Source: Escherichia phage Pondi. From it: a stretch of DNA of 60,610 bases. The stretch is taken from the sequence record OP136151.1. One strand, given 5' to 3'. The translations under genes and the position numbers were made by a program. The notes under the pieces were generated by a model. It saw only the letters and a program-made list of their open reading frames with translations. It was not told the DNA's origin and made no database searches. Within the stretch, counting starts at the first letter, position 1. Each line of letters starts with the position of its first letter. This document shows positions 4,917 to 50,785 of this stretch, one piece after another.

Positions 4917-7278
4917 TGATGACTTCCTGCTGAGTAGGCGTTACCTGCTGGCCGATTTGCTGGGCCTGCTGCATCGCCGTCTGCTGCAATGAGCTTCCGT
5001 GCTGGAGTGCGGTGGTCTGACGCTTGGTCTTGTCCTGTGCTTCGGCAATCCGTAGCCGGGTTTCATTATCCAGCATAGACAGCAACATATCAAGCTGACC
5101 GCGCTTACCTTCCAGTTCTGCGTCGAGTGCCATCTGAATCAGCTTCAGTTCGCGGTCGGCGGCCAGTTGGTTGGCTTGCTTGGTTAACTCCAGTTCAGCT
5201 TTAATCTGCGCTTCCTGCACGCGACCTTTCGCTTCTTCCTGCGCAGCCTGTACCAGCGGATCAACTGGTGGTTCTGACGGAGGCGGCTCCTGGAAGTTCT
5301 TAGCCAGATTCGGGAAGAATTTACTACCGTCGCCCTGACCGAGTGTTGAGAAGATAGCGCTACCGACGGCTTTGCTATCCATGTTGTCAGCCATGCCCGG
5401 TAACTGCATTACCGTCGTAACACCGTACATCAACGTGTTTACACGCTGTACCGGGTCAGTTGCGCCAATACCGGTATCGACTTTCATCTCAAGCTGTTTG
5501 GTCATGAGATCGTCGGTCAGGTCTTCCACGTTGAGGCGCGGGAAGTATGCCGAGTTGTCGACGGCGATGTGCATGATCGTCTCGTCGTTCTCATAATACT
5601 GAACGGTGAGCATGAACAGTTCCAGCACCGGGCGCACGAAGGTGAACACGAAGGTACGGATGTCGAAGTCGTTCACTTTGGTAGCGGCGTTGCTGAGCAA
5701 CTTCATACCACCGACAGTCTCGTTCATCTCGCGGTTGTTGGCTACAGCCTGGCCGCTGAAGGTACCCTGTGCTTCGTTCATCTCCATAGTCAGGCGCTGA
5801 GTTTCCTCATAGCTGCTACTGGTGACGTCGTTCACTTCCTGCGGGATCAGGTCGCCAGCCGGGTCGCTGGTGAAGATTACACCGCCCGGAGTGGAGCGTG
5901 TCAGAGCGGCCAGGTCGATAGATGCACCGCGACGCGCCAGGTAACGCTTGTTCAGTACGAGCTTAACGTTGTCTACGCGCTGGTTGCTGATTTCGTTCAC
6001 TGCGCGCTGCAACTCGCTACCGATATGGGCTTTGGAGTCCGGCACGTTGTTGTGAGATTCAATCATGCAGGTACCGTAGACGAACGGCAGGCGACCGTGG
6101 TGATAGCGGTCCTTCAGTTCTACAGGCTGCTCTAACAGGAACTGAGTACCCATCATGTGATAGGTGTACCAAAGACCATCACGGCGGACGAACACTTCGT
6201 TAACCATTACAGATTCGTAGCGGACATCGGCGTTGTCGTTGTTGATTGGGTCCGGCTTACCTTCACCGCGCTTAGCCTGCTGCGTTGCGTCGTCTTCCAT
6301 CGCCCAGCGGCACGTCAGGATTTCACCTTCGGAAAGCAGGTTCCACTCGCCGCGTTCCATACGCACCATGACGTCATCAACGGACATCATTTTTCTGTGT
6401 ACGAAATACTTGCCAGTACCGACAACATCGTTCGCTTTCGCGGTTGGGTCGAAGATAAAGTTTTCCGGCAGGATCAGGTCGATGTACGGCTCGTCGTGAA
6501 TAACGTTTTCAGTCTTAGTCGTCTCCAGACCAATCAGGTTACCCGCTTCATCGAATACCGGAGTGTCGGTCGTAGTGGTTGTGGTTTCGCGCCACCAGAA
6601 AACTTTAGCGATTGCTGGCCCATTGATGAATGAGTCCTGCGCAGCACCGATACAAATCGGGTACCAGATTTTATCCAGACGAAGGTTTACGATTTCCTTC
6701 AGCACTGCCGCCGCTTTATCCGCATCCTGGTCGGTTACGTTGCGTGGCGAAATGTGCATGTAGTCATCGTTCAGGAAAAGCGCGGTTGCGATGTCTGCTT
6801 CCCAGCTACGGGAGGCCATGCGGGTTAACGGGCGGAAAACTTTCGAGCGGTTGCGGAACGCTTCGCTGTAATATTTGCTGCCCGGTTCGTGGCGACCTTT
6901 GAACAGGTAAGTGTCGTTGATGTGCTGCGTCTGGTAGCCCTGACGATAGAAGGTGCGCCCGGTGTCATAGCAACGACGACCGAGGTCAATCCACTGGGTT
7001 TCAGACATGCCAGCAACGCCGGAGTCGTCCGGTTGATTATAGGTTTGTTCTTCGGCTTGCAGGACATCGCCTTCCTTCTCGAACTGGGAGAATGAGTCCA
7101 TCTCACCGAAGGATGCCTGATTGATGTCCAGTTCAGCGCCGGGGATAATCTGGTTAGCGCGGTACGGGTCGTCGTTTACCTGCGTAATCCCGCGAGCACC
7201 ACCGCCGCCGTAAGGCGACTGGGTGTCCGGCGCGCGACCAACGAGGGAATCACTGATCCCTTTTTGTGCGTTCGGCAT
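4897..7278 (-). CDS. Portal protein (putative), 793 aa
   Basis: Large ORF between terminase and scaffold/capsid genes, the canonical portal position; GAGGA RBS. Confidence 0.6.
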   Translation of the reverse strand: MPNAQKGISDSLVGRAPDTQSPYGGGGARGITQVNDDPYRANQIIPGAELDINQASFGEMDSFSQFEKEGDVLQAEEQTYNQPDDSGVAGMSETQWIDLGRRCYDTGRTFYRQGYQTQHINDTYLFKGRHEPGSKYYSEAFRNRSKVFRPLTRMASRSWEADIATALFLNDDYMHISPRNVTDQDADKAAAVLKEIVNLRLDKIWYPICIGAAQDSFINGPAIAKVFWWRETTTTTTDTPVFDEAGNLIGLETTKTENVIHDEPYIDLILPENFIFDPTAKANDVVGTGKYFVHRKMMSVDDVMVRMERGEWNLLSEGEILTCRWAMEDDATQQAKRGEGKPDPINNDNADVRYESVMVNEVFVRRDGLWYTYHMMGTQFLLEQPVELKDRYHHGRLPFVYGTCMIESHNNVPDSKAHIGSELQRAVNEISNQRVDNVKLVLNKRYLARRGASIDLAALTRSTPGGVIFTSDPAGDLIPQEVNDVTSSSYEETQRLTMEMNEAQGTFSGQAVANNREMNETVGGMKLLSNAATKVNDFDIRTFVFTFVRPVLELFMLTVQYYENDETIMHIAVDNSAYFPRLNVEDLTDDLMTKQLEMKVDTGIGATDPVQRVNTLMYGVTTVMQLPGMADNMDSKAVGSAIFSTLGQGDGSKFFPNLAKNFQEPPPSEPPVDPLVQAAQEEAKGRVQEAQIKAELELTKQANQLAADRELKLIQMALDAELEGKRGQLDMLLSMLDNETRLRIAEAQDKTKRQTTALQHGSSLQQTAMQQAQQIGQQVTPTQQEVINESNVK

Positions 7279-9177: not shown

Positions 9178-10014
9178 TCACAGCGTGGTAATTAACGAGA
9201 ACACCAGGCCAGCGGCTGTAGCGCCACCCAACATAGCCGGGAGTGCGACTAGTCCTACGTTAACCGATGATGTATCGGTCATCTGAGTAATACGGAGGCG
9301 GGTGCCGGACGGGATGTCAACTGCTGATGTCAGCCCGATGACCTGCAAAACGTTGTTACCACCCGCACCGCGAAGGTTGATATAACGTGCGCTCCCGGCT
9401 GTTGGTGTCCACGTTACGCCGTCCGGTGACGTCTCTACCTGAAAACCCCACGTTACCGCAGCGGAACCGCCAGTAGTGCGACGCACCTGACAAGTTATAG
9501 CCAGAGTACCGACAATGCGTCGCGCTGTGGTGAATATACCTGTGGCGTTGTCCAGCGTACCTAGAGCGGCGTTAGGTAATGCCTGAGCATTGAACACCAC
9601 AACCTGCGGGGTGTTGTTGGCGGTAACGTACTGATTCAGCGCAAGACCTGTAGTAGTGAAGGATGCACGAAACACAGCACTTACCGGACGGTTGACATCA
9701 ACGTTATCGCCGTAAGCCTGAATGTAGCGAGCATGTGCATACTGCACGGGTGAAAGGCACACAGCGCCCGGATTAAGGTCGAGTAATTGATTGACGCGCT
9801 GGGTGAACGATACGCTGTCGGCAGCGTCCACGATAAAATAGTTACAGGCGGGAACCTCGGTGGCGTCGGTATCCAGTGTCATTAGCTGAGTGTAGCGAGC
9901 ATTGAAGCAGACCACGCCGCACACAGGGAACCAGCCCATAGCCTGAGCCGCGTTTACAGAGTCGACGAGTTTGTTAGTGGTTTGCTCGGTGATGAGCTTG
10001 ACGGTAACGGTCAT
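9178..10014 (-). CDS. Hypothetical late protein, 278 aa, hydrophobic C-terminus
   Basis: Start moved to internal ATG at 10014, preceded by GGGAGGG; lies between large terminase and tail fibre genes. Confidence 0.5.
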   Translation of the reverse strand: MTVTVKLITEQTTNKLVDSVNAAQAMGWFPVCGVVCFNARYTQLMTLDTDATEVPACNYFIVDAADSVSFTQRVNQLLDLNPGAVCLSPVQYAHARYIQAYGDNVDVNRPVSAVFRASFTTTGLALNQYVTANNTPQVVVFNAQALPNAALGTLDNATGIFTTARRIVGTLAITCQVRRTTGGSAAVTWGFQVETSPDGVTWTPTAGSARYINLRGAGGNNVLQVIGLTSAVDIPSGTRLRITQMTDTSSVNVGLVALPAMLGGATAAGLVFSLITTL

Positions 10015-10073
10015 TAGCTGGCCCTCCCTGGGCGAAGTGGGGCACTCCATGCGCCCCGTGTGATGAGTATATC

Positions 10074-18969: not shown

Positions 18970-19155
18970 ATGTCTAAATCTATCATCGCTATCATCCTGG
19001 CTACTCTTCTGGCTGGTTGCTCTGCTAACGTCGGGTACAATCCCAACGTATCCGGGCAAACCGGGCGCGCTGAGTCCGACTCACCTAACGCGCAGCAACG
19101 CGCCGAGAACGCTCAGACGTCCCGTGATGCTGCGGCTAAGGGCGGCGAGTGGTAA
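18970..19155 (+). CDS. Small outer-membrane lipoprotein, 61 aa (candidate superinfection-exclusion protein)
   Basis: MSKSIIAIILATLLAGCSANV: signal peptide plus lipobox LAGC with Ser at +2; AGGAG RBS; followed by GC hairpin. Confidence 0.6.
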   Translation: MSKSIIAIILATLLAGCSANVGYNPNVSGQTGRAESDSPNAQQRAENAQTSRDAAAKGGEW

Positions 19156-23922: not shown

Positions 23923-23951
23923 TTGACAGTCAGGGACGACTATACTAAATT
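23923..23951 (+). promoter_or_regulatory. Sigma70-like promoter candidate (TTGACAGTCAG... -10 TAAATT)
   Basis: -35 TTGACA, 17-nt spacer; shares the extended TTGACAGTCAG with the candidate at 25852. Confidence 0.3.
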
Positions 23952-23986: not shown

Positions 23987-24169
23987 ATGAGCTTATTTGA
24001 CTTAGTATTCAATGCTTTCCAACCTGCGCCTGAAATCGGTAACACGTACCACGGTACCCGCACCGAGATCGTAACGTACACGAAGCGCTATACCCGTAAA
24101 GGTGTTCGCATCATTCCTTTAGAAGTCCGTGCGCTCCCTGGCAATAGCCGTGGTAAGGCGCGTCGCTAA
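23987..24169 (+). CDS. Hypothetical basic protein, 60 aa
   Basis: AGGAAAA RBS; TAATG coupling downstream. Confidence 0.4.
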   Translation: MSLFDLVFNAFQPAPEIGNTYHGTRTEIVTYTKRYTRKGVRIIPLEVRALPGNSRGKARR

Positions 24170-26878: not shown

Positions 26879-27091
26879 ATGGCGCAGCACAAGATTAACG
26901 TGTTCGGTCGTTACCTGCTATGCTGTATAGCATCGGCTGACGCACCTGTAACGTTCGATGAACTGGCCTCCTATACCGGCTACGACAAAGAGCATGTGCG
27001 CAAGGCGGTAAAGAAACTTGAAACGGCTGGAGTCGTTACTATTCACAAACCGCATCGTAAGGAGGCTCAAATTGTCGCAACATTTATTTGA
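26879..27091 (+). CDS. Small winged-helix-like DNA-binding protein, about 70 aa
   Basis: DELASYTGYDKEHVRKAVKKLETAGVV resembles a wHTH; start uncertain (weak RBS). Confidence 0.35.
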   Translation: MAQHKINVFGRYLLCCIASADAPVTFDELASYTGYDKEHVRKAVKKLETAGVVTIHKPHRKEAQIVATFI

Positions 27092-38258: not shown

Positions 38259-40466
38259 ATGGATGCTCGCGATTACACCTACGACATAGAGACGTACCCG
38301 AATACGTTTACCTTCAGTGCTCGTCACGTTGCGACAGGTAACCGTTATCGCTACGAAATCTCTGACCGCCGCGATGACCGGGAGAAGATGTTCTACTTCC
38401 TGAACTACCTGCGGAATAACGATCAGCGTATGGTGGGATTCAACAACCTGTGGTTCGACTGGGAAGTGGTCCAGTGGATCTATGAGAATCCCTGGTGTTC
38501 AGTCGCGGGTATCTACAATAAGGCCATGTCCCGCATCAAAGGTGATAACGCTTATCCGATGTGGGCCGACGCTCGACTCGTCAAGCAGATTGACCTACTG
38601 AAGATTCACCACTATGACAACAAGGCGAAGGCTACCAGCCTGAAGTCGCTTGAGATTGCCATGCGCATGAAGCAGGTGGAAGACCTGCCGTTCCCGGTCG
38701 GTACCCATCTCACCAACGAACAGAAAGATATTCTGTGGGCTTACAACGACCACGATGTTGATGCCACCACCGACTTCTACATCAAGTCCTACGACATGAT
38801 TGCGTTCCGTGAAGAACTGTCCGAGAAATATGGGTCGGACTTCATGAACCTGAACGATACGAAGATCGGCAGTGAGGTATTGATTCACGCCCTGGAGAAA
38901 GCCGGGGTGCAGTGCTACGGCAAACTCGGTGGTAAGCGTGTGCCGCGCCAGACTCCGCGCTCACAAATCGCACTGGCCGAGTGCATCCTGCCTTACATCC
39001 GCCTGGAACATCCGGCATTCCAGATGGTGCAGAAATACCTGATGGAGCAGACCATCAAGGAAACTAAAGGTGTGTTCTCCGACATCCGGTGTACACCTGA
39101 GATGGTCAAGTGGATGGACCCGAAGCGTGTGAAGGTCTGGCTGAAGGGTGTTAAGAAGCCACGCCGCCTGGCGCATATTCCGGCTGACGCTGACCTGACA
39201 GGGGCGAAGTTTGTGGCGGTCAGCTTGCATTGTCGCATCGACGGCTTTAACTATGACTTCGGTACCGGGGGATTGCACGCATCCCTCCACCGTCAGATTG
39301 TGCGTACCGGTAATGGTTTTACCATCGTCGACCTGGACGTGGCAAGTTACTATCCGAACCTGTCAATCAAGAACCGCATCTTCCCGGCGCACCTGTCAGA
39401 AGTTTACTGCGACGTATCGGAGTTCTTGTTTGACGAACGTAACCGCGTAGGTAAAAAGACAATGATGGGTGGCGCGTACAAGCTGGCCCTCAACGGTACG
39501 TATGGTAACAGCAACAACGAATACAGCGTGTTCTATGACCCGATGTACACCATGAAGATCACAATCAACGGGCAGCTTTCTCTGTGTATGCTGGTTGAGC
39601 AATTGCTGAAGGTACCGGGGTTACAGATGATTCAGTGTAACACTGACGGTATCACCTTCCATTGCCCTGACCAGTACCTGGAGCACGCCAACAATCTGCG
39701 CGTGTGGTGGGAGCAGGTTACCAAACTGGAACTGGAAGAGAACCGCTATGACCGCTTCTTTATCCGTGACGTGAACTCATACATCGCCGAGTACAGTGAA
39801 GGCTACTACAATCCTGAGAAGCCAGACAGCCGCTACAAGCGTAAGGGCGCATACGAATACAAACGTGAGTGGCATAAAGATCACTCCGCCCTGGTGGTGC
39901 AGAAGGCGGTTGAAGCGCGCATGGTCCACGGTGCTGACATGACGTCATTCATTATCAACCACCGTGACGAGTTTGACTTTATGATCCGTGGTAAGGTCAA
40001 CCGTGACTCGTCGCTGCATCTGGTTTACCCGGACGGCCACGAAGAGAAGTTGTCCAACACTATCCGGTATTACGTCACGCAGTCCGGCGGCACACTGATT
40101 AAGCGCACGGCACCGAAGGGTACGCCCGGAACGTGGAAGCGTAAGAACAAACTGACGGACCAGTATTACGACAGCGTGGTTGCGGAACTACAAGCGTCAG
40201 TACGGGACACCACCACGTACGCGGGTAAAGCCGGGATATTGAATGACGGGCGTATGGTTGCTATTGACGCTGCCGGGGTACCGCACGACGAGCGCATCCA
40301 CACGAAGAATAAAAGTCAGTGGGGCCTGGTAACTGAGTCCAACATGTGTTCCGGTCAGACCGTGGCCGACTGTAGCGACTTCAGCAAGTTCGACTGGAGC
40401 AAGGTTAACTATCTGTGGTACGTGTTTGAAGCGTGCAAATTATTAATTGTCGACAAAAAGACTTGA
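38259..40466 (+). CDS. Family B DNA polymerase with N-terminal 3'-5' exonuclease domain, 735 aa
   Basis: Exo I YDIETY, Exo II FNNLWFDWEVV, motif A DVASYYPNLSI, motif B KLALNGTYGN, motif C CNTDGI; motifs closest to phi29-type PolB. Confidence 0.8.
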   Translation: MDARDYTYDIETYPNTFTFSARHVATGNRYRYEISDRRDDREKMFYFLNYLRNNDQRMVGFNNLWFDWEVVQWIYENPWCSVAGIYNKAMSRIKGDNAYPMWADARLVKQIDLLKIHHYDNKAKATSLKSLEIAMRMKQVEDLPFPVGTHLTNEQKDILWAYNDHDVDATTDFYIKSYDMIAFREELSEKYGSDFMNLNDTKIGSEVLIHALEKAGVQCYGKLGGKRVPRQTPRSQIALAECILPYIRLEHPAFQMVQKYLMEQTIKETKGVFSDIRCTPEMVKWMDPKRVKVWLKGVKKPRRLAHIPADADLTGAKFVAVSLHCRIDGFNYDFGTGGLHASLHRQIVRTGNGFTIVDLDVASYYPNLSIKNRIFPAHLSEVYCDVSEFLFDERNRVGKKTMMGGAYKLALNGTYGNSNNEYSVFYDPMYTMKITINGQLSLCMLVEQLLKVPGLQMIQCNTDGITFHCPDQYLEHANNLRVWWEQVTKLELEENRYDRFFIRDVNSYIAEYSEGYYNPEKPDSRYKRKGAYEYKREWHKDHSALVVQKAVEARMVHGADMTSFIINHRDEFDFMIRGKVNRDSSLHLVYPDGHEEKLSNTIRYYVTQSGGTLIKRTAPKGTPGTWKRKNKLTDQYYDSVVAELQASVRDTTTYAGKAGILNDGRMVAIDAAGVPHDERIHTKNKSQWGLVTESNMCSGQTVADCSDFSKFDWSKVNYLWYVFEACKLLIVDKKT

Positions 40467-41610: not shown

Positions 41611-42448
41611 AGTCACCGCGTTCACGGTCGAGAAGGAACTCGACCTGTCGAAGCCGAATGAGGATGCGTACTTCAAACCGTGCACTGCCGGGAACGAAGA
41701 AAGCATTGGCCTCATCGCGGCTAACCCTATGCAGGATGAGATGACCTGGATACACAAGGGTATCACCTTCCTACAGTTCCAGTACCAGAAACGCAAGGTA
41801 CCAGACAAATGGTTGCGTGCTGAGTTCGCTCGCCGCACCAAAGATAAAACCTTCAACCGGGATGAGGCCAATACCATTTATGAACAAGTTAAAGCGGAAA
41901 TGTGGGAGAATGTACTGCCTTCTAACGACTACGGCTGGGTGGCGTATGATCCAGATCGAGATGCTCTTTTTGTGGGCGCTTCTCCCCGTGTGGTTGAAAA
42001 GGTCACGCAACTCTTACGCCAGGCGTTTAACAGCCTGCCGATCGAAAGTTATCTCCAACCTACGGCGTTTTGTCAAATGGTACGAGCTACGCTGAATATC
42101 GACCGGGAAGATGAGCACCCGCTGGAACTGGGCGACAGTCTGGACCTGTACGGTGCTTTCAAAGCTACAGCAACCTTCCGCAAAATGGACAACCTGTCAG
42201 GTAACGATAAGGTGTTTTCCACGCTGAAGGACTTCCCGAATGTGCAGGCGGCCAACTTCACGTACGCTGGTGACGAAGGTTATTTTGCGTGTACCCGGTA
42301 CACCGACATGGTGATCCCGTACGAAAAGGATAAGGAAGCTGATGACTGCGGCGACATCCTGTTGCAGTACGACAAGGCCAGTCAGTATCTTGACATACTC
42401 GCTGAAGTTTGCGAGCCATACGTAACTGAAAAAGGAGCGAAGCTATGA
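41594..42448 (+). CDS. rdgC: RdgC-like recombination-associated protein (putative), 284 aa
   Basis: N-terminal pattern MTAKFKVTAF...FKPCTAGNEE and a C-terminal DREDE segment recall E. coli RdgC; from memory. Confidence 0.35.
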   Translation: MTAKFKVTAFTVEKELDLSKPNEDAYFKPCTAGNEESIGLIAANPMQDEMTWIHKGITFLQFQYQKRKVPDKWLRAEFARRTKDKTFNRDEANTIYEQVKAEMWENVLPSNDYGWVAYDPDRDALFVGASPRVVEKVTQLLRQAFNSLPIESYLQPTAFCQMVRATLNIDREDEHPLELGDSLDLYGAFKATATFRKMDNLSGNDKVFSTLKDFPNVQAANFTYAGDEGYFACTRYTDMVIPYEKDKEADDCGDILLQYDKASQYLDILAEVCEPYVTEKGAKL

Positions 42449-42975
42449 CAAGTATAAATGAAATTATCGACGAGATTATTCGCGTTGAAGGTGGATATGT
42501 AGACCATCCGAATGATCCGGGCGGTGCTACCAAATATGGCATCACTGAAAAGGTTGCCCGTGCTGCTGGGTATAAAGACCATATGAAAGACTTACCGTAT
42601 GGTATCGCACGTAACATCTACTACACTGACTATGTGGTTAAACCGGGTTTCGACAAGCTGGCTGAGATCAACGCTGACATCGCGGCTGAAGTGGTAGACA
42701 CTGGCGTGAACATGGGTCCGACGGTGGCTGGTAAATTCCTCCAGCGTGCACTCAACGCTGTGTCAGGCGCTGGCCTCGTAGTGGACGGTGCTGTCGGTAA
42801 GCGTACAGTGAATGCCCTCGCAGACTTCCTGCGTTCACGCGGTAGCGTTGGCGCTAAAGTATTACTGAAAATGCTTAACAGTCTCCAGTGCGTACGGTAT
42901 ATTGAGCTTACCGAAAGTAACGCCAAAAACCGCTCATTCATTTATGGATGGGTCGCCAACCGCGTGAACATCTAA
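42445..42975 (+). CDS. Endolysin: glycoside hydrolase family 108 domain plus peptidoglycan-binding domain, 176 aa
   Basis: N-terminal EGGYVDHPNDPGGATKYGIT is the GH108 signature; C-terminal PG_binding_3-like region; AAAGGAG RBS. Confidence 0.8.
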   Translation: MTSINEIIDEIIRVEGGYVDHPNDPGGATKYGITEKVARAAGYKDHMKDLPYGIARNIYYTDYVVKPGFDKLAEINADIAAEVVDTGVNMGPTVAGKFLQRALNAVSGAGLVVDGAVGKRTVNALADFLRSRGSVGAKVLLKMLNSLQCVRYIELTESNAKNRSFIYGWVANRVNI

Positions 42976-43031
42976 GCGGCCAGTCGAGGTCGTCAATCCC
43001 GGCAAGGACGCCAATGTAAGGAGCTTAACAG

Positions 43032-43265
43032 ATGGACAAATCCAAAGCGCTGCACGACGCTGGTATCACTATCGGTATCGCTGTGACCACCGTGTTAACC
43101 ACGGTACCGGACGCCGCGTTAGTAGTGTGGCAGACTGCCCCGCATTTATTCCAGGCTGTGGTACCGGAAGAATATCTCCCGGTCGTGTCTGGTGTCATTA
43201 CTTTACTGGTGGCAATCAGTCGCGTCATCAAAGCTAAGAAAGCTAAGGCGGAGAAGAATGGCTAA
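43032..43265 (+). CDS. Holin (class II-like, two TM helices), 77 aa
   Basis: Two hydrophobic helices and Lys-rich C-terminus, immediately downstream of endolysin. Confidence 0.55.
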   Translation: MDKSKALHDAGITIGIAVTTVLTTVPDAALVVWQTAPHLFQAVVPEEYLPVVSGVITLLVAISRVIKAKKAKAEKNG

Positions 43266-43458
43266 GGGACTCCGTATTACCAGACGTGAAGGTCAGAGCG
43301 TCTACATCGGTAACGATATTGTCGTGACGGTAGAGAACTCCGAGAACGGTAACGTCGGTCTACGCATTTCCGCACCGTCGGATGTAGGTATTCACCGCGA
43401 TCCTGACCGTGTACCTGTGCAGTTAAAAATTGCAGCGAGTATTAAAAAGGGGCGTTAA
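43258..43458 (+). CDS. csrA: CsrA/RsmA-like RNA-binding protein (carbon storage regulator homologue), 66 aa
   Basis: MAKGLRITRREGQSVYIGNDIVVTVEN...GNVGLRISAPSDVGIHRD aligns with E. coli CsrA [25 protein letters not shown]...VRIGVNAPKEVSVHRE; GGAG RBS; overlaps holin 3' end. Confidence 0.65.
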   Translation: MAKGLRITRREGQSVYIGNDIVVTVENSENGNVGLRISAPSDVGIHRDPDRVPVQLKIAASIKKGR

Positions 43459-43470
43459 GCCCCTTTGTTT
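43444..43470. terminator. Bidirectional rho-independent terminator
   Basis: A5, stem GGGGC/GCCCC with GTTAA loop containing the csrA-like stop codon, then TTTGTTT; sits between convergent genes. Confidence 0.65.
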
Positions 43471-43688
43471 ACTAAGCGTTCCACTTCTTCCCTCAAGTGC
43501 TCGATAGTCTGTTCCGCCCTCGCCAGTTTAGCCGACAGCAAAACAATCCTTTCGTTCGTGGCCTCTTCCGCAGCTTCCTTCTTACGTTCGTTGTGAAGAT
43601 TCAACGCATGGCGCACCAGGTTGAATAACACAGCGATGGCAATGAAAGGTAACGGCGCATCCACAGGAATTGAACTAAGTTCGAACAT
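43455..43688 (-). CDS. Membrane-anchored coiled-coil protein, 77 aa (i-spanin-like)
   Basis: N-terminal TM helix PFIAIAVLFNLV followed by charged helical ERKKEAAEEATNERIVLLSAKLARAEQ. Confidence 0.4.
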   Translation of the reverse strand: MFELSSIPVDAPLPFIAIAVLFNLVRHALNLHNERKKEAAEEATNERIVLLSAKLARAEQTIEHLREEVERLVNKGA

Positions 43689-44049
43689 GAGCCAACTCCC
43701 ATAAAGTGACGCCAGCGGTAGACCAGAAAATCAGGATGGGAACTACTCCGACTGCGGCGGCTTGTGCGGCCATGCCGAGATAACACCAGAAGATACAACT
43801 GAAGAACGCTACACACCAGTGGCTGAATGTTCCCATCCATCGCTCAGGGTTGCGGGAGATATAGATCTGAGCGCCACCGATCACAATGCCTGAGAATACC
43901 CACCATGCGCCAGGCATGATACCAGTTAACTCATCAATAATGACTGGCTGTTTGAATACTGCCGCCACGATTGACCACGTTAATGTCACCATGCCGACAA
44001 GCATTTCCACTCTAATCTGCTTGTTCATGTTGTAATATCCCATGTCCAT
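43675..44049 (-). CDS. Integral membrane protein, 124 aa, 3-4 TM helices (holin/antiholin-like or exclusion protein)
   Basis: Multiple hydrophobic helices; GGAG RBS; downstream of the terminator that ends the giant gene. Confidence 0.45.
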   Translation of the reverse strand: MDMGYYNMNKQIRVEMLVGMVTLTWSIVAAVFKQPVIIDELTGIMPGAWWVFSGIVIGGAQIYISRNPERWMGTFSHWCVAFFSCIFWCYLGMAAQAAAVGVVPILIFWSTAGVTLWELAHVRT

Positions 44050-44165: not shown

Positions 44166-47100
44166 TTAAAACAACATCCAATATTTGTCACTCAATTCTT
44201 TCGCCAGTTCGTTCTTCTTGACCTGCAAGGCATCCAGTTCTGCACGCTTCGCTTCAGGTGACATACCGTCGTTCGCGTAAATCTCTTTCGTCTGGCGGTT
44301 GTACTTCTGCATCCGGGCAACGCCTTTCTCAATTGACTTACGGGCAGACAACACGCTGGCCTTCTCGGTCTTAAACTCCCGATACGCCTGCATGTTCTTC
44401 TGGTCTTTGTACGCCTTCAGGGTACCGTACGTTTGACCAGCCTTCTCGCTCATCTGGTACAGACGGTCGGTGTATTTGTCGCCGGACACACCGCCACGTA
44501 CGAAAGTTTTTACCACCGGGTAATCAAAATCCTTTTTAGCCGGGGCAACTTTTTCGGTACCCGTTCCTTTGCGATAGGCCACGTCCGTTACACCGACGAT
44601 GTACTGACCGACTGTCCCGGTGTAACCCTCAATCATATGCTGGAGACGCAGCGGACTACGCATCCATTCCGGGGCAGCTTCAGGTAACGCCTTGCTCATA
44701 TCCTTAATCCACTCAGGCGTCGTGGTGCTGTGCTGCTGGTTAGCTTCCAGACGTTGCAGTGACTGCGGTACGATTGGACGCTGAGTAAAGCTATTCATGT
44801 TGGTCTGGTCTTCGTAGATCGGCTTGAAGAACTGAGGCCAGTCTGCCGCAAACGTGTTAGACAACATGAAGCCCAGGCGTGCACCAAACATACGGTCGTC
44901 ACGGTACAGCGCTTCGAATGCACGCTCAGGAATAGTGCCGAACAGTGCGCCCAGTTCGAACGGTTTCGGGATACGGTAGCGAGTGTCGCCAGCGAAGATG
45001 ATCCAGAAGGAATCACGCTCATGTTCTGGCAGCGCCCAGTAACGTTCGTCGTCCGCGTTCATTGCCATAAGGGCCATCGTTGCACCAACAAGTAGAGCAC
45101 CTTTCAGCATGAACGCTTTCGGGTTCTCTTTACCACCACGTACCATACGGTCCAGACCCTGCACACGGGCATTCAGGAACGGTATCATCGCCATCGCTGC
45201 TTTGGTTACACGGCTGCTACCACGGCGGCTGAAGTTCAGCACATCGTTAGACTGGTATGCAGCTTCCACCGGATCGCCAGTGTGCTTCAGGACGTCTTCG
45301 TACACACCCATGCGAGTGGCCTGTTCGGATGCCGTCAGCAACTTACTGTACATTTCCCACAGCTTCTTAGGTGAGTTAACGATGGTGCCGCCTTTCTCCA
45401 GCTTGCGCAGGTTTTTGGCAACCGACTCAGGACGGGAGTTATCGTAACCGCCCATCATGCCGCCAGCGACGTGGTAGTCGACAGCCATCGAGTCGTTGCG
45501 GATGGAACGCATCGCACCCTGGAACGCTTTGAAGAACGGGCGGAACGTCAGGACGTCTTTAGTGATAGCAGACATTCCGTTGCGGCCAGCGGCTTTAGTC
45601 ATCTGCACATAGTTACCCATTACGTCACGCACGAAGTTGGTCATAACGAAGTTAGGCGTTGACGTCACGGCTGCTGTGAATACACGTTTAGGCCAGCCGA
45701 GAATGTTGATGAGGGTATCGACGGCTTCCGGGCCAACACCTGCGATTGCTTCCAGCAACTGCGGGTCGGTCACTTCGTAATACTTCGCCTTGCCACCTTC
45801 ACGCACGGAGATAATGTTAGCGCCCTGCGGTGCTACTGCGGTGAACAGGTTGGAGTATTGCGCCATCTGCTCAGCGGTCATACCTTCAACCTTCAGGCCC
45901 AGGTTGGTCAGCGCACGTTTCATCTGCTCGTTGCTGATACCGACAGGCTTGAAGTTGTGCGGCACTTCTTCCAGCGCTGCGTTGATGGTAATGTCGCGCA
46001 CCTTCTGCATGGCCGCGTTCTTGTAGCCGGACGAGATCATGTGGTTAACGTTACGCGCCATGTTCTCCAGGATGTCCATTTTACCAGCGCCACCCTTCAG
46101 ACGGCGGATGCCGGAAGACTGATCAGCGAGGCCACGTTTTCCAGACGGTGCTGTTACACGGTCCACTTCCTCATCCACACGGTAGAACGGAACGTAGTCG
46201 TCGGATTCGAACAGTTTACGCTGCTCAGGATCTACGATGCCAGTTTGCTCACCGAAGTCGAGGATGGCTTTGTTAAACTCACGCCAGTCTTTGTGCGCCT
46301 GGTTGAATACCTTACGCATTTCCGGGCGACGGTTAACATAGTCGATGATGTCTTTAATCTGCTTCTCGGTGTACAGGTTTTCGCGGCCTTCTTCCATCAA
46401 GCGTTTGGCACGCACAGCACCCGCCCAGTATTCCCACACTGGCAGCATATTACCTTTCATCTCCAGCACTGGATTGAAGATTTCAGTGAAGCCTTTGGTG
46501 TTCTTGTTCAGGCTGATGCCACCGTCTTTGTATACCGGAGCGCCGTGGTTCATTGCGACGGCCACGGTGCTGTTCACGTTCTTCGCCAGCATTGCCATCT
46601 TGTACGCCGACTCTTTACCCTGACGCAGTTCACCGTTGTTACCAGCCTTCTCATATTTGGCGATGGTGTACAGGTCATCCACGCCTTTCTGATACAAGCC
46701 TTCCATCGTCAGACCGTTGTCTTTCATGATGTCTTTGATGCGCTGGAACAGAGAGCGGTCATCGCGGTACATGGTGTCACGCATACCCTGCTTGATGTCT
46801 TCGTCCACTTCCGCAGACTCGATGTCGTTTTTCTTTTTCAGGCTGGCGGCAAAGTTACGCGGCGCGCTGTACTGCATCGGCGGCAGAGATTTACGCACGT
46901 CGTCACGGTTGACAGTGTTGTCACGCAGGTACTGAGCATTGGCCTGAATAAGCTGGCGTACAGACTCCATGCTGGCGCGACCGTCAATCAGCTTGGCTTT
47001 AATCATCAACTGACGCAGAGCTTCCAGCACGCGGGTAATGACGTTGGACTTCTCCAGGATAGCTGGGTTTTCCGCAGCCAGCGCTAGGACTTCTTCAGCC

Positions 47101-50100
47101 ATCATACGCTGCGCGTCAGGTGACGACATGTCGTACAGTTCGCTGTAGCTCTCGCGCACTTCTTTGAAATACTTCGCCAGCGCCGGGGACTTATCGGCGG
47201 CCAGGATTTTATCCATCTCAGCGTCGTATTCCGGTTTAGACAGGCGAGCACGCAGACCGTAGTGTACGACAATCTCATGACGCAACAGAGCTTCCACTTC
47301 TTCCTTGCTGGTCAGGTTTTCGGAGATCAGTTTAGCGCTCACGTTGCCAGCGTCATAGAAGCCGAGCAGGACGCTACCTTCCGGCAGGTCGATACCCATA
47401 TCTTCCTGACGCTGCATGACGGTCATGTCTACAGCCTGCGCGCCTTTGAACTTCTTCAGGAAGTCGGCGGCAACCACAGCCACATCTTCCGGTGACATAC
47501 CTTGCTTATCAGACGCAGGTTTAACGCTGGCAGCACCGGACTGTTTGTCAATCTTACGCTTAGCGTAGTCCTTACCGAAAATCTCACGACGACCTTTTGA
47601 GTCTTCAGTAGCCAGGTACGTGTCGTGGATAGACTTAACGGTGAACGTCTCGCCGTCTTCCTCGAAAGTCTTACCTACCAGCGTGTGATAGTCGACATTA
47701 GGGGTAACGTCCGGCTTGTCAGTCTTCTTCGGTACGCGAGCTTCTTTGTAGGCCACGTAATGTTTGGCTGGCGCTGACATGTCACGGGAGTCAACCTTAT
47801 CACCACGGGCATACGCGCGGTCGATGGTTTCCTTCAGTGTGATACCGTCAGGTTGCATCTTCTCCAGGGCGCGGACGTAGTTGCGACGTACCAGTGGCTT
47901 CATACCACGTGTGAAATCTTCCAGTGACTTCTCGAAAGATTCAGTGCGCGCGGCAGACTTCTCACGCAGACGGTCAGCCGTCGCCTGACTTTCTTTACTC
48001 AGACCTTTCGGTGACGGTTCAGCGATACTGGACATGCGTTCTTCCAGTTCCTTACGCATGGTCGCGCGAGTCTTACCTTTCAGTGGCGCGTACAGATGAC
48101 GGTCGGATTCCGGTACCTGCGTTTCCATAGCGGCCAGGGTCTCACGCACTTTGTTCAGCGGACGCTTGGTATCGTTGACTTCATGCAGCACACCTTGCAG
48201 CGTATTAGCGTTGACACGGCTTTCCGAAGACATCCCTAAACGATCACCTTTGCCCGGCGCGTCCATCACGTTGCTGTCACCACCGCGACGAATCATGACA
48301 TCGCCGTTGTCCAGCACGAAGCGACGACCTTGCACACCAGTGATCTTGCGGACTTCACCGTGGGAGTCTTTCGCATACTTCCCGTCCAGGTCGGTACCTT
48401 CCACTGGCCCAAAACCAACACGACCTTCAACGTCGGTAACGCGAGTAGACTCACCTTCGATTGCGGCGTTATCCTTTTCCTTCTCTGCGATCATCTCACC
48501 CAGGTCACGCTGGACTTCGGCAGACTGCGCCAGTACATCGTCGGTCGCCTGCTGTGCATCGGTAACCATCTCACCCAGGTTGCGCTCGTCTTCGAACTCT
48601 ACAGGGGCTAGGTCATAACGCTCACGGGCATCTTTGGTTTCCTGAGACACACGCTTCATACCTTCCGGTACCACAGACGGCACGTTGATTTCACGGGCGT
48701 CGACAATGTGACCGTTGCCGTTCTCATCAACCAGACGTACAGCGCGGCCCTGGAATTTATCGACGGAATACTCCTTGCCGTTCCAGTTCACTTTGTTGCC
48801 GACGTCAACGCCACGCTCGTTGGCTTCCTTCAGGATCTTGTTGGTAACCTGAATAGCTGGCTGCTTCTTGCCAGGTAACGCCGGACGCACAGATTCACGC
48901 TCGATGTATTTCGCTACAGCCTCGTCACCTTTCGCCTTTAGTTCTGCCTGACGTGCTTCTTCGGCGGCCAGCGCTTCTGTATCGACTTCTGGCGCGGCTT
49001 TCTTTTTGGTACGGGCAAACAGTGCTGACTTCGGTTTAACCTCGGCAGCGGCTGGCTCAGCGGCGGGAACGGTCGGTTCCAGTGCAGCGGCTACGTCAAT
49101 CTGCGGCAGCGGCGGTGGAGTCACTTTATCTTTCGGCGGCAGTGCTGGCGGTACCACAGCTTCGGTAACCTGCGGTAATGCTGGCGCTTCCAGTTTCTGC
49201 TGTACTGCTGCCAGTACCGGAGACTCTTCAGCGACACCGCGTGGATTGTAACCAGTGGCCTCTTTAACCTGCGCAACTGGACCGGGCATAGCGATGGTGG
49301 AAGTTTGCCCCGGAGACGGCAGACCTTTAGTTTCACCCGGCAGCGGACCGACGTCACCCTGCGCTACCTGCTGCTGTACCATCTGAGCTACAGACTGCGG
49401 TGCGTTAGTGGCGCTCGCCTTGTTCGCATAGTAGATAGAGTCCGGGGAGTCGAATAGTTCGCTGACCATCTGATCCATAGCGTCGACTTCACCGACATCA
49501 CGGGATGCGGCCATCGCTTCAGCCGGAGACATACCCTGAGCGCGCGCTTCCATGTAGGCAGACTTGCGAGCTTCAGTGATTGCAGGAGACGCCTGTTCAA
49601 CCATCTGGTCCAGCACGTCACCGCCGCCCATCTCAGCACGCACAGCGTCGTATTCGTTCGGGTCCACACCTTCAACAGCCTGACCGGACTCAGCCGCAGC
49701 GTCACCGATAGCGTTGTTAACAGAGCGGTTATCCTTCCAGTCTTTGACCATGCCGGGAGCTTGCACCGCGCCATGCAGAGTAGCACCTACGCCAGCACCA
49801 GTTACACCGGAGAACGCCACGTCATTCAGGAACTGGCCTACCGTCATGTCTTCGTCGAGCACGCCGATGTCGTAACCATTCTGGATAGCCTGGGTAGCGG
49901 ATTCCTGAATACCTTCAGCTATTGCAGATTTGCCGAGATCAGTAAGGCTGTGGGCACCTTTCTTCATGATGAGGCCCAGCGGTACCGCTTCAGTAATCGG
50001 TTCCAGTGCGGCGAACATGGTTGCGCGGTTGTCGGCTTCTGCCGGAGACAGACCTTTGTCGATTGAGTCCTGATAGTAGGAACCGTACGCCTGACCAGTC

Positions 50101-50744
50101 ATCTCAGCGAGGCCAGCGACCGGGCGCTTCAACAGGATGGACGTCAGGATTGCCGGAGACATGTCCTGCGCGCCCGTGAGGATTGTGGATACCAGGTTTT
50201 TAGCTGACCACTCGTCGCCAGTCTTCGGTGCAGTTTTGGCAATTTCGTTTGACAGGCGAAGACCTTCGTCACGCGCGGCAACAAAGTCGGCATCCTTATT
50301 CAGTTCTGCGGCCTTCGCTTTATCAATAGCGGCGTAGAGAGCTTTATTCTTTTGCAGTTTGGTCGCATACGTGTCGCCTTCGGCAGCGGTAAAGGTAGCT
50401 GGGTCAATCCCCAGTTCGGCAGCATATGACGGATCGTTACGCAGGCGTTCAGCCAGCACCCCGTCAGTCAGGTCTTGACCTTTGACGGCCACGCCTTGTT
50501 TGATACCCTGCCATGAACGTTGCATACGCTCAGGCATCGCGGCGAGAGATTTGTAAATTACGTCGCCCCAACTATCTTCTTTTGCTGGTTCTGTGACGGC
50601 TGTCTCACTTCCGATACCGGAAAAGTCTACGTCACCCAGGTCGAAGTTAACTGTCGACAGGTCGATGTCAGATTTAGGTTTTGATGCAGGTTGTTGATTT
50701 GGCTGGGATAAGTCCAGTCCAGAAAGGTCGATGTTGCTTGCCAT
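44166..50744 (-). CDS. Giant virion-associated protein, about 2192 aa (putative internal/ejection protein; function unknown)
   Basis: Start at ATG 50744 preceded by AGGGGGAG (track ORF extends 13 codons further); last gene of the late operon; no Walker A, RNA polymerase or peptidase motif recognised by eye. Confidence 0.6.
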   Translation of the reverse strand: MASNIDLSGLDLSQPNQQPASKPKSDIDLSTVNFDLGDVDFSGIGSETAVTEPAKEDSWGDVIYKSLAAMPERMQRSWQGIKQGVAVKGQDLTDGVLAERLRNDPSYAAELGIDPATFTAAEGDTYATKLQKNKALYAAIDKAKAAELNKDADFVAARDEGLRLSNEIAKTAPKTGDEWSAKNLVSTILTGAQDMSPAILTSILLKRPVAGLAEMTGQAYGSYYQDSIDKGLSPAEADNRATMFAALEPITEAVPLGLIMKKGAHSLTDLGKSAIAEGIQESATQAIQNGYDIGVLDEDMTVGQFLNDVAFSGVTGAGVGATLHGAVQAPGMVKDWKDNRSVNNAIGDAAAESGQAVEGVDPNEYDAVRAEMGGGDVLDQMVEQASPAITEARKSAYMEARAQGMSPAEAMAASRDVGEVDAMDQMVSELFDSPDSIYYANKASATNAPQSVAQMVQQQVAQGDVGPLPGETKGLPSPGQTSTIAMPGPVAQVKEATGYNPRGVAEESPVLAAVQQKLEAPALPQVTEAVVPPALPPKDKVTPPPLPQIDVAAALEPTVPAAEPAAAEVKPKSALFARTKKKAAPEVDTEALAAEEARQAELKAKGDEAVAKYIERESVRPALPGKKQPAIQVTNKILKEANERGVDVGNKVNWNGKEYSVDKFQGRAVRLVDENGNGHIVDAREINVPSVVPEGMKRVSQETKDARERYDLAPVEFEDERNLGEMVTDAQQATDDVLAQSAEVQRDLGEMIAEKEKDNAAIEGESTRVTDVEGRVGFGPVEGTDLDGKYAKDSHGEVRKITGVQGRRFVLDNGDVMIRRGGDSNVMDAPGKGDRLGMSSESRVNANTLQGVLHEVNDTKRPLNKVRETLAAMETQVPESDRHLYAPLKGKTRATMRKELEERMSSIAEPSPKGLSKESQATADRLREKSAARTESFEKSLEDFTRGMKPLVRRNYVRALEKMQPDGITLKETIDRAYARGDKVDSRDMSAPAKHYVAYKEARVPKKTDKPDVTPNVDYHTLVGKTFEEDGETFTVKSIHDTYLATEDSKGRREIFGKDYAKRKIDKQSGAASVKPASDKQGMSPEDVAVVAADFLKKFKGAQAVDMTVMQRQEDMGIDLPEGSVLLGFYDAGNVSAKLISENLTSKEEVEALLRHEIVVHYGLRARLSKPEYDAEMDKILAADKSPALAKYFKEVRESYSELYDMSSPDAQRMMAEEVLALAAENPAILEKSNVITRVLEALRQLMIKAKLIDGRASMESVRQLIQANAQYLRDNTVNRDDVRKSLPPMQYSAPRNFAASLKKKNDIESAEVDEDIKQGMRDTMYRDDRSLFQRIKDIMKDNGLTMEGLYQKGVDDLYTIAKYEKAGNNGELRQGKESAYKMAMLAKNVNSTVAVAMNHGAPVYKDGGISLNKNTKGFTEIFNPVLEMKGNMLPVWEYWAGAVRAKRLMEEGRENLYTEKQIKDIIDYVNRRPEMRKVFNQAHKDWREFNKAILDFGEQTGIVDPEQRKLFESDDYVPFYRVDEEVDRVTAPSGKRGLADQSSGIRRLKGGAGKMDILENMARNVNHMISSGYKNAAMQKVRDITINAALEEVPHNFKPVGISNEQMKRALTNLGLKVEGMTAEQMAQYSNLFTAVAPQGANIISVREGGKAKYYEVTDPQLLEAIAGVGPEAVDTLINILGWPKRVFTAAVTSTPNFVMTNFVRDVMGNYVQMTKAAGRNGMSAITKDVLTFRPFFKAFQGAMRSIRNDSMAVDYHVAGGMMGGYDNSRPESVAKNLRKLEKGGTIVNSPKKLWEMYSKLLTASEQATRMGVYEDVLKHTGDPVEAAYQSNDVLNFSRRGSSRVTKAAMAMIPFLNARVQGLDRMVRGGKENPKAFMLKGALLVGATMALMAMNADDERYWALPEHERDSFWIIFAGDTRYRIPKPFELGALFGTIPERAFEALYRDDRMFGARLGFMLSNTFAADWPQFFKPIYEDQTNMNSFTQRPIVPQSLQRLEANQQHSTTTPEWIKDMSKALPEAAPEWMRSPLRLQHMIEGYTGTVGQYIVGVTDVAYRKGTGTEKVAPAKKDFDYPVVKTFVRGGVSGDKYTDRLYQMSEKAGQTYGTLKAYKDQKNMQAYREFKTEKASVLSARKSIEKGVARMQKYNRQTKEIYANDGMSPEAKRAELDALQVKKNELAKELSDKYWMLF

Positions 50745-50785
50745 TAGAAATGCTCCCCCTTGTTGATAGGGGAAGCATAGCATAT

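Follow-up and report, generated by a model that had tools for sequence, protein, structure and literature searches.

A divergent CsrA-family gene linked to the holin gene of Escherichia phage Pondi, with a conserved hairpin in the holin leader as its candidate target

The 60,610-nucleotide (nt) stretch of Escherichia phage Pondi DNA in record OP136151.1 (referred to here, at its full length, as the window) carries on its + strand, at 43258–43458, a csrA-like gene of 66 amino acids (aa). Its product appears to be functional, if divergent, and to belong to the CsrA/RsmA family; it would be a small dimer, predicted to bind RNA at GGA motifs. The gene, called csrA below, follows an endolysin and a holin gene in every related locus that we compared, and the leader of the holin gene contains a hairpin, HP2, that is conserved through most of the core of this group and has the form of a CsrA binding site. 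We propose, tentatively, that the holin leader is a target of the phage protein and that the pair may influence the time of lysis. Relatives were drawn from Logan, NCBI, IMG/VR and metagenome contigs and comprise 19 loci, here called the clade, in which identity of the CsrA protein ranges from 100% to 48%.

A divergent member of the CsrA family

The open reading frame (ORF) begins with an ATG at 43258–43260 and ends with a TAA at 43456–43458; its product is MAKGLRITRREGQSVYIGNDIVVTVENSENGNVGLRISAPSDVGIHRDPDRVPVQLKIAASIKKGR (66 aa). The original prediction for this DNA had pointed to a block-by-block resemblance to CsrA and had named a profile search as a check, and the resemblance is borne out by profile, orthologous group and structure database alike. 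The Pfam CsrA profile PF02599 matches with 48 bits (E = 1.2e-12), against a gathering score (cut-off) of 27 bits, and aligns residues 5–48 with profile positions 2–45 of 53, and PHROG 9500, 'CsrA-like regulator', matches with E = 4e-9. In a phmmer search of the PDB, solved structures of RsmE, RsmA and CsrA are matched at 8.5e-7 to 1e-5, among them RsmE 2jpp (8.5e-7) and E. coli CsrA 1y00 (9.7e-6). These scores place the similarity well beyond chance.

The relationship to the host protein is distant. E. coli CsrA and the phage protein share 36% identity across 44 residues, and the cut-offs of the two NCBIfam equivalog models for bacterial CsrA orthologues that we used are not reached (NF002469, 37.2 bits against 73; TIGR00202, 29.4 against 70.1). 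When a profile of the clade was used in an exhaustive search, 4194 CsrA-superfamily clusters matched at E ≤1e-3, mainly over profile positions 5–49, which form the β-strand core, and a single cluster matched at ≤1e-30, which places the protein in a distinct branch of the family with few members. We regard its membership of the CsrA/RsmA family as very probable, and on the scores above it is a family member yet no equivalent of the host csrA gene.

Predicted structure and RNA-binding residues

A single-chain AlphaFold model of the csrA product, built on 21 clade sequences, has a pLDDT of 73 and a pTM of 0.53. Structure prediction was a further check named at the outset, and the predicted fold is compatible with CsrA: the 15 best Foldseek matches in the PDB are, without exception, CsrA, RsmA or RsmE, with TM-scores of 0.51–0.68 (normalised to the target chain). 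Most of these matches comprise 37–47 aligned residues with rmsd values of 1.9–3.2 Å, and three chains from NMR structures or complexes align over 52–63 residues with rmsd values of 4.0–8.1 Å. Foldseek probabilities are 0.77–1.00 (1.00 for the top 13), and the best E-value is ∼7e-3. Strands are called only for β2–β4; the missing assignment of β1 and β5 is as expected for a monomer model, because both pair with the other subunit of the dimer.

The eight positions at which substitution most strongly impairs RNA binding by E. coli CsrA are R44, V42, L2, I47, V40, L4, R6 and R7 (Mercante 2006, in the form quoted in PMC6692469). Seven of these are kept or conservatively replaced in the phage protein, as L5, I7, R9, R10, V43, I45 and R47, and three of them, R9, I45 and R47, are invariant in 21 of 21 clade members, as is H46. 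Relative to E. coli CsrA, the phage protein has three additional N-terminal residues (M-x-K-G-L). Past β5 the model shows a three-residue helix at 49–51, with pLDDT below 55 beyond residue 50. The clade-specific C-terminal sequence contains prolines, and the conservation of its final K-G-R/H is explained because the 5′ arm of the terminator stem described below encodes those residues.

Linkage to the lysis genes

The two genes upstream of csrA are identified by family matches. The endolysin (42445–42975, + strand, 176 aa) has GH108 and PG_binding_3 domains (PF05838, 2.1e-22; PF09374, 1.1e-15) and belongs to phrog_315, endolysin; the holin (43032–43265, + strand, 77 aa) is a DUF7940 protein (30 bits against a Pfam cut-off of 27) and belongs to phrog_1356, holin. 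Its counterpart in the related phage PTXU04, gp29, is recorded as a putative holin with two transmembrane domains. The holin stop codon, TAA at 43263–43265, lies within an 8-nt overlap with the start of csrA, ATGGCTAA. The position of csrA immediately after endolysin and holin, and the overlap of its start with the holin stop, thus stand as originally described. Its placement inside a lysis cassette needs correction: csrA is the terminal gene of a rightward transcription unit that comprises replication genes, endolysin and holin, and does not lie within the cassette, which in this phage group has no spanins.

The order endolysin–holin–csrA is found in 19 of the 19 clade loci, down to 48% CsrA identity. 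Where contigs reach further, the wider order is an RdgC-like gene, the GH108 endolysin, the DUF7940 holin, csrA, two convergent genes for small membrane proteins and a gene for an LPD38 protein of ∼2200 aa. In loci of the core sub-clade, the overlap between csrA and the holin stop measures 1, 4 or 8 nt. In the distant sub-clade (L005, L012, L029 and L030) an i-spanin gene and an embedded gene for a lipoprotein o-spanin lie between holin and csrA; in L005 the i-spanin-like gene occupies 5567–5893 and the o-spanin-like gene about 5790–6040. Each o-spanin of this sub-clade has a lipobox, LLTGC or LLSGC, after its signal peptide, and a frame that extends past the start of csrA. No homologue of these spanins was found in the window or its close relatives, and their spanin function is thus not accounted for by such homologues.

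Linkage of csrA to the lysis genes is a stable feature of the clade, and we conclude that csrA is a stably inherited core gene of the Xuquatrovirus-like E. coli podophages. The linkage was also considered as a general trait of phage CsrA genes and rejected as such, the genes of phages F116 and phi297 being located in the early region beside the repressor.

A candidate CsrA site in the holin leader

The holin leader, the 56 nt that separate the holin start codon from the endolysin stop, has two hairpins, HP1 and HP2. The candidate CsrA site is HP2 (43001–43012, + strand), which reads GGC-AAGGAC-GCC and whose 3-bp stem carries a hexaloop with GGA. A second GGA, 16 nt downstream of that in HP2, forms part of the holin Shine-Dalgarno sequence AAGGAG, read from the sequence at 43019–43024 (+ strand), and a third overlaps the holin start codon (ATGGAC, 43032–43037).

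Of 13 core-clade lineages, 12 keep the core of HP2, GCA-N-GGA-Y-GC, while the outer stem varies, from GGC/GCC to CGC/GCG and UCGCA/UGCGA, and this among lineages whose endolysin and holin proteins are only 39–71% identical. The window group has outer stem GGC/GCC around the core GCAAGGACGC; in L003 and L010 the stem is CCGC/GCGG and the core GCAGGGACGC, in L007 the stem is GCA/UGC and the core GCAUGGAUGC, and in L009 the stem is UCGCA/UGCGA and the core GCACGGAUGC. When the 13 lineages are aligned on this anchor, two pairs are invariant, one alternates between C-G (7 lineages) and G-C (5), and a further pair alternates between C-G, U-A and U-G. The hairpin has a covariation score of 0.241, compared with 0.108 in shuffles; none of 500 shuffles scored as high, and the score collapses once the pairing partners are slid. 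The window has a single copy of the motif GCA-N-GGA-Y-GC; the fetched loci, 321 kb in all, have 24, of which 16 are at the HP2 site.

The HP2 of L009 contains CACGGAUG, which we take to correspond to the core of the RsmE-bound hcnA site of 2JPP. That structure is cited as the RsmE–hcnA complex in PMC7652899, where the sequence of the site is not given. The same source reports a SELEX consensus for CsrA, RUACARGGAUGU, with most selected ligands forming hexaloops on stems of ≤4 pairs, and describes how one CsrA dimer can bridge two sites 10–63 nt apart (PMC7652899). As a candidate site, HP2 fits these rules in shape and sequence, and the 16 nt between its GGA and that of the Shine-Dalgarno sequence fall inside the bridging range.

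HP1 (42979–42995, + strand; CGGCC-AGTCGA-GGTCG) directly follows the endolysin stop. It is predicted in the leaders of the window, Bas95 and PTXU04 and is conserved through the core clade; in L008 (AGCCC/GGGCU) and L067 (AACC/GGUU) its stem has compensatory changes. Its loop reads UGGA in L003, L007, L009 and L010, and not in the window group, and no T run follows it. HP1 might act in RNA processing or stability, or be a weaker candidate CsrA site where its loop reads UGGA.

Two other roles for nearby sequence were considered and rejected. The holin leader is not a repeated phage promoter, both hairpin sequences being unique in the window even with 3 mismatches. An autoregulatory site at the start of csrA, where the window encodes the invariant K3-G4-L5 by AAG-GGA-CU and so resembles a CsrA site, shows no sign of constraint at the RNA level, the Gly codon being GGA in 6 and GGU in 3 of 9 clade sequences.

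The combination of an upstream GGA-loop hairpin and a GGA in the Shine-Dalgarno sequence is found in 3 of the 88 genes of the window gene list; this list left out the holin, displaced by an extended csrA ORF, and with the holin the count is ∼4 of 89. The three other genes start at 10014 (− strand), 23987 (+ strand) and 27072 (+ strand), and their hairpins lie at about 10030–10060 (−), about 23929–23942 (+) and about 27025–27045 (+), respectively. The hairpin upstream of the 60-aa gene at 23987 reads AGUC-AGGGAC-GACU.

Close relatives and the published orthologue

The csrA region is 93% identical in DNA sequence to Escherichia phage PTXU04 (genus Xuquatrovirus) and 92% identical to HelliStehle_Bas95. 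The csrA product is 100% identical to Bas95_0033, annotated 'CsrA-like regulator', and in the annotation of phage Pondi the same (100% identical) protein is called 'translational regulator'. PTXU04 gp28 (PTXU04_00028 / HOV50_gp28) is 94% identical to it. This orthologue has the same position 3′ of the holin and the same terminator, and differs in nothing of substance, the window being a separate isolate.

PTXU04_00028 has been named a csrA homologue by Adler et al. 2025 (PMC11879866). In their transcriptome-wide dCas13d screen of PTXU04, gp28 was scored Semi-fit and its knockdown gave smaller plaques; the holin gp29 was scored 'Not fit' and the endolysin gp30 'Semi-fit' (PMC11879866). Complementation was prevented because gp28, when expressed in E. 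coli, proved toxic or interfered with infection (PMC11879866). The smaller plaques on knockdown of gp28 support a real role of csrA in infection. CsrA/RsmA homologues had earlier been surveyed across phage genomes by Campa et al. 2021, who proposed that they serve host manipulation (PMC8450108). Both the identification of this gene as a csrA homologue and its reading as a means of host manipulation are thus already published and publicly annotated.

A scan of IMG/VR with the holin alignment, directed at phages that have this holin without csrA, returned only PTXU04.

Proposed mechanism and alternatives

The membership of the family, the order of the genes, the conservation of the leader hairpin and the effect of the orthologue on fitness could be joined in a single mechanism, with the holin leader as putative target and repression as the putative effect. 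Translation of csrA would be coupled to that of the holin, hence both proteins would be made together. The phage CsrA, alone or with the abundant host CsrA, would bind the holin leader at HP2 and at the GGA of the Shine-Dalgarno sequence, and one dimer spanning these two sites would limit the entry of ribosomes on the holin mRNA. Were csrA translation to depend on holin translation in this way, such binding would constitute a negative feedback loop, and the loop would set the pace of holin accumulation and thereby the time of lysis. Host CsrA targets are likely to be affected as well. Of the two roles suggested for the protein at the outset, rewiring of host regulons and timing of lysis, the latter gains indirect support from the conservation of HP2. 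A precedent exists in the colicin E2/E7 operons, in which host CsrA represses the lysis gene cel and so sets lysis time (PMC7055308). We prefer this mechanism to the alternatives below, and hold it in full, including the step at the holin leader, with somewhat less than even confidence. A stronger version, in which the holin-coupled CsrA feeds back through HP2 and the Shine-Dalgarno sequence as a self-contained post-transcriptional lysis clock of Xuquatrovirus-like phages, maybe integrated with host CsrA and metabolic state, seems to us doubtful.

Several observations weigh against the proposed feedback on the holin. On the protein side, the equivalent of E. coli I47 is Asp (D50) and in place of the C-terminal helix of CsrA there is a poorly modelled, clade-specific tail, L-x-I-A-A-S-x-K-K-G-R; for all members of the clade, moreover, the binding of GGA motifs in RNA is a prediction from sequence. 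On the RNA side, the covariation in HP2 represents essentially one or two evolutionary events, L067 retains the hairpin with a UUGA loop in place of GGA, and the distant sub-clade (the four loci named above) has no HP2, its holin leaders still containing GGA. GGA occurs in every good Shine-Dalgarno sequence, hence the argument from that element is unspecific. Host CsrA, being abundant, could be the sole ligand of HP2. Across the window, GGA-loop hairpins show no enrichment (177, with 208 ± 14 in shuffles) and the motif CANGGAYG is depleted (8 against 17 ± 4, with at least 8 in 100 of 100 shuffles), and a general enrichment of CsrA sites was rejected on both counts; the depletion could reflect avoidance of CsrA binding or an effect of composition. 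Finally, the holin knockdown of PTXU04 was 'Not fit' and that of csrA 'Semi-fit', and the csrA phenotype is therefore not simply one of reduced holin, although this contrast does not discriminate among the models considered here.

The phage protein might instead mimic host CsrA and act mainly on host mRNAs, adding to CsrA activity and so promoting a glycolytic, growth-like state or dampening stress and defence responses, with the holin leader no specific target. Earlier authors have proposed such a role for the CsrA/RsmA homologues of phages (PMC8450108, PMC11879866); it agrees with the retention of the RNA-binding residues, with the toxicity or interference caused by PTXU04 gp28 (PMC11879866) and with the tendency of phage CsrA genes to occur in phages whose hosts have CsrA (PMC8450108). 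The location of csrA at the end of the lysis-gene unit and its apparent coupling to the holin, however, suggest late synthesis, which would leave little time to reprogramme the host, and the linkage to lysis genes is clade-wide, unlike the early-region location of the CsrA genes of temperate Pseudomonas phages. Nor does mimicry explain the conserved GGA hairpin of the holin leader, and we consider it somewhat unlikely as the main role.

Two further possibilities were considered. In one, the protein would oppose host CsrA by soaking up or displacing the sponge RNAs CsrB/CsrC, by competing at shared sites with a different outcome or by forming inactive mixed dimers. The β-strand core is kept while the C-terminal tail diverges and the I47 equivalent is lost, the scores lie under the NCBIfam equivalog cut-offs, and the depletion of CANGGAYG could reflect avoidance of CsrA sites, all of which would suit an antagonist. 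Mixed dimers of so interlocked a fold nevertheless seem unlikely at 36% identity to E. coli CsrA, and an Rfam scan of the whole window returned no family at the gathering score and hence no RNA resembling CsrB, CsrC, RsmY or RsmZ; we judge antagonism improbable. In the other, the CsrA fold would be retained for a different role, for example with a protein partner, after loss of GGA-RNA binding, and the leader hairpins would be unrelated stability, processing or standby elements. The loop of L067, the invariant A-A-S motif in the clade-specific C-terminal region and the moderate confidence of the model (in pLDDT, pTM and Foldseek E-value alike) leave room for this. The equivalents of R44, R6, R7, L2, L4, V40 and V42 are, on the other hand, invariant or conservatively replaced in 21 clade members, a pattern that is hard to explain without RNA binding, and loss of binding appears very improbable.

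Terminator, convergent genes and other features

A bidirectional terminator-like hairpin, AAAGGGGC-GTTAA-GCCCCTTT, lies at 43446–43466 and was identified by folding of each strand, with −19.8 kcal/mol (z −3.5) on the + strand and −16.2 kcal/mol (z −3.1) on the − strand. The csrA stop falls inside the five-base loop GTTAA, as had been claimed for it, and the folding of both strands agrees with that claim. The convergent 77-aa ORF has its stop at 43455–43457, and therefore both stop codons share the palindrome TTAA. The hairpin is present in all relatives, with stem variants such as GGGCC/GGCCC in L005, and the PTXU04 record NC_048193 annotates a terminator at the homologous place. A simple terminator scan did not report the hairpin at 43446–43466, probably because its A and T tracts pair together; folding and the PTXU04 annotation support it.

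The convergent 77-aa gene (43455–43688, − strand, from the ORF list) encodes an N-terminal membrane segment followed by a coiled coil, and a second small convergent gene (43675–44049, − strand, 124 aa), conserved beside csrA, encodes several membrane segments. Homologues of both adjoin csrA in every clade locus, and no Pfam or PHROG family was matched by either. The counterparts in PTXU04, gp27 of the 77-aa gene and gp26 of the 124-aa gene, were scored 'Not fit' (PMC11879866). Beyond them lies a gene (44166–50783, − strand) whose 2205-aa product carries an LPD38 'large polyvalent protein' domain at its C terminus; gp25, the orthologue in PTXU04, was scored 'Fit' and has no assigned function (PMC11879866).

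Three further observations concern other parts of these genomes. In the early region of the window, at 18970–19155 (+ strand), a small ORF begins MSKSIIAIILATLLAGCSANVG... and encodes a signal peptide followed by a lipobox; the product may not be a spanin but a lipoprotein that acts in superinfection exclusion or blocks a receptor. The DNA polymerase of the window is a single uninterrupted ORF of 735 aa (38259–40466), whereas that of Bas95 (L001 1–1231) is annotated as a coding sequence joined from two pieces, with a gap between the matching parts in tblastn, which suggests an intron or other insertion. In L007, a 63-aa gene at 718–909, 3′ of the DNA polymerase, has a weak match to Acb2_Tad1_hairpin, an anti-CBASS / anti-Thoeris sponge family.

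Significance and comparison with known systems

Phage-encoded CsrA homologues have been catalogued, and to our knowledge none has a defined target; for this clade, the small-plaque knockdown of PTXU04 is the only functional datum that we know of. The linkage to the holin and the hairpin in its leader narrow the general proposal that the protein manipulates the host to one question, namely whether the holin leader is bound and repressed. If it is, this would be the first CsrA of a phage for which a phage target is defined, and lysis would be timed in a new way, at the level of translation and possibly with input from host physiology by way of the Csr system; this would bear on the control of burst size and on phage engineering. 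If the holin leader is not bound, csrA is one more annotated phage CsrA homologue.

With E. coli CsrA and Pseudomonas RsmA and RsmE the phage protein shares the β1–β5 core, the key RNA-binding residues, small size and the Pfam family; it differs in its clade-specific tail, and no CsrB/CsrC-like RNA lies nearby. The CsrA-family proteins of temperate Pseudomonas phages (F116 gp24, phi297 gp21 and relatives) are likewise phage-encoded and are 46–54% identical over the core. F116 gp24 and phi297 gp21, however, are ∼123 aa long and are encoded in the early region beside the repressor, in temperate phages of another host genus. The plasmid protein RsmQ and the CsrA homologues of other mobile elements are also element-borne regulators able to affect host translation (PMC9928087, PMC8450108). 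They belong to plasmids and integrative elements with long residence in the host, whereas the gene described here is linked to lysis in a podophage of virulent type.

A functional parallel is the colicin E2/E7 gene cel, where a CsrA-family protein occupies the Shine-Dalgarno region on the mRNA of a lysis gene and sets how long lysis is delayed (PMC7055308), and we propose the same logic for the holin. There the regulator is the host CsrA and the lysis gene is on a plasmid; here the phage would use its own CsrA, coupled to its putative target. The features that appear to be new in the present system are the clade-wide linkage of csrA to lysis genes, the terminator shared by two stop codons and, upstream of the holin, the conserved leader hairpin of CsrA type.

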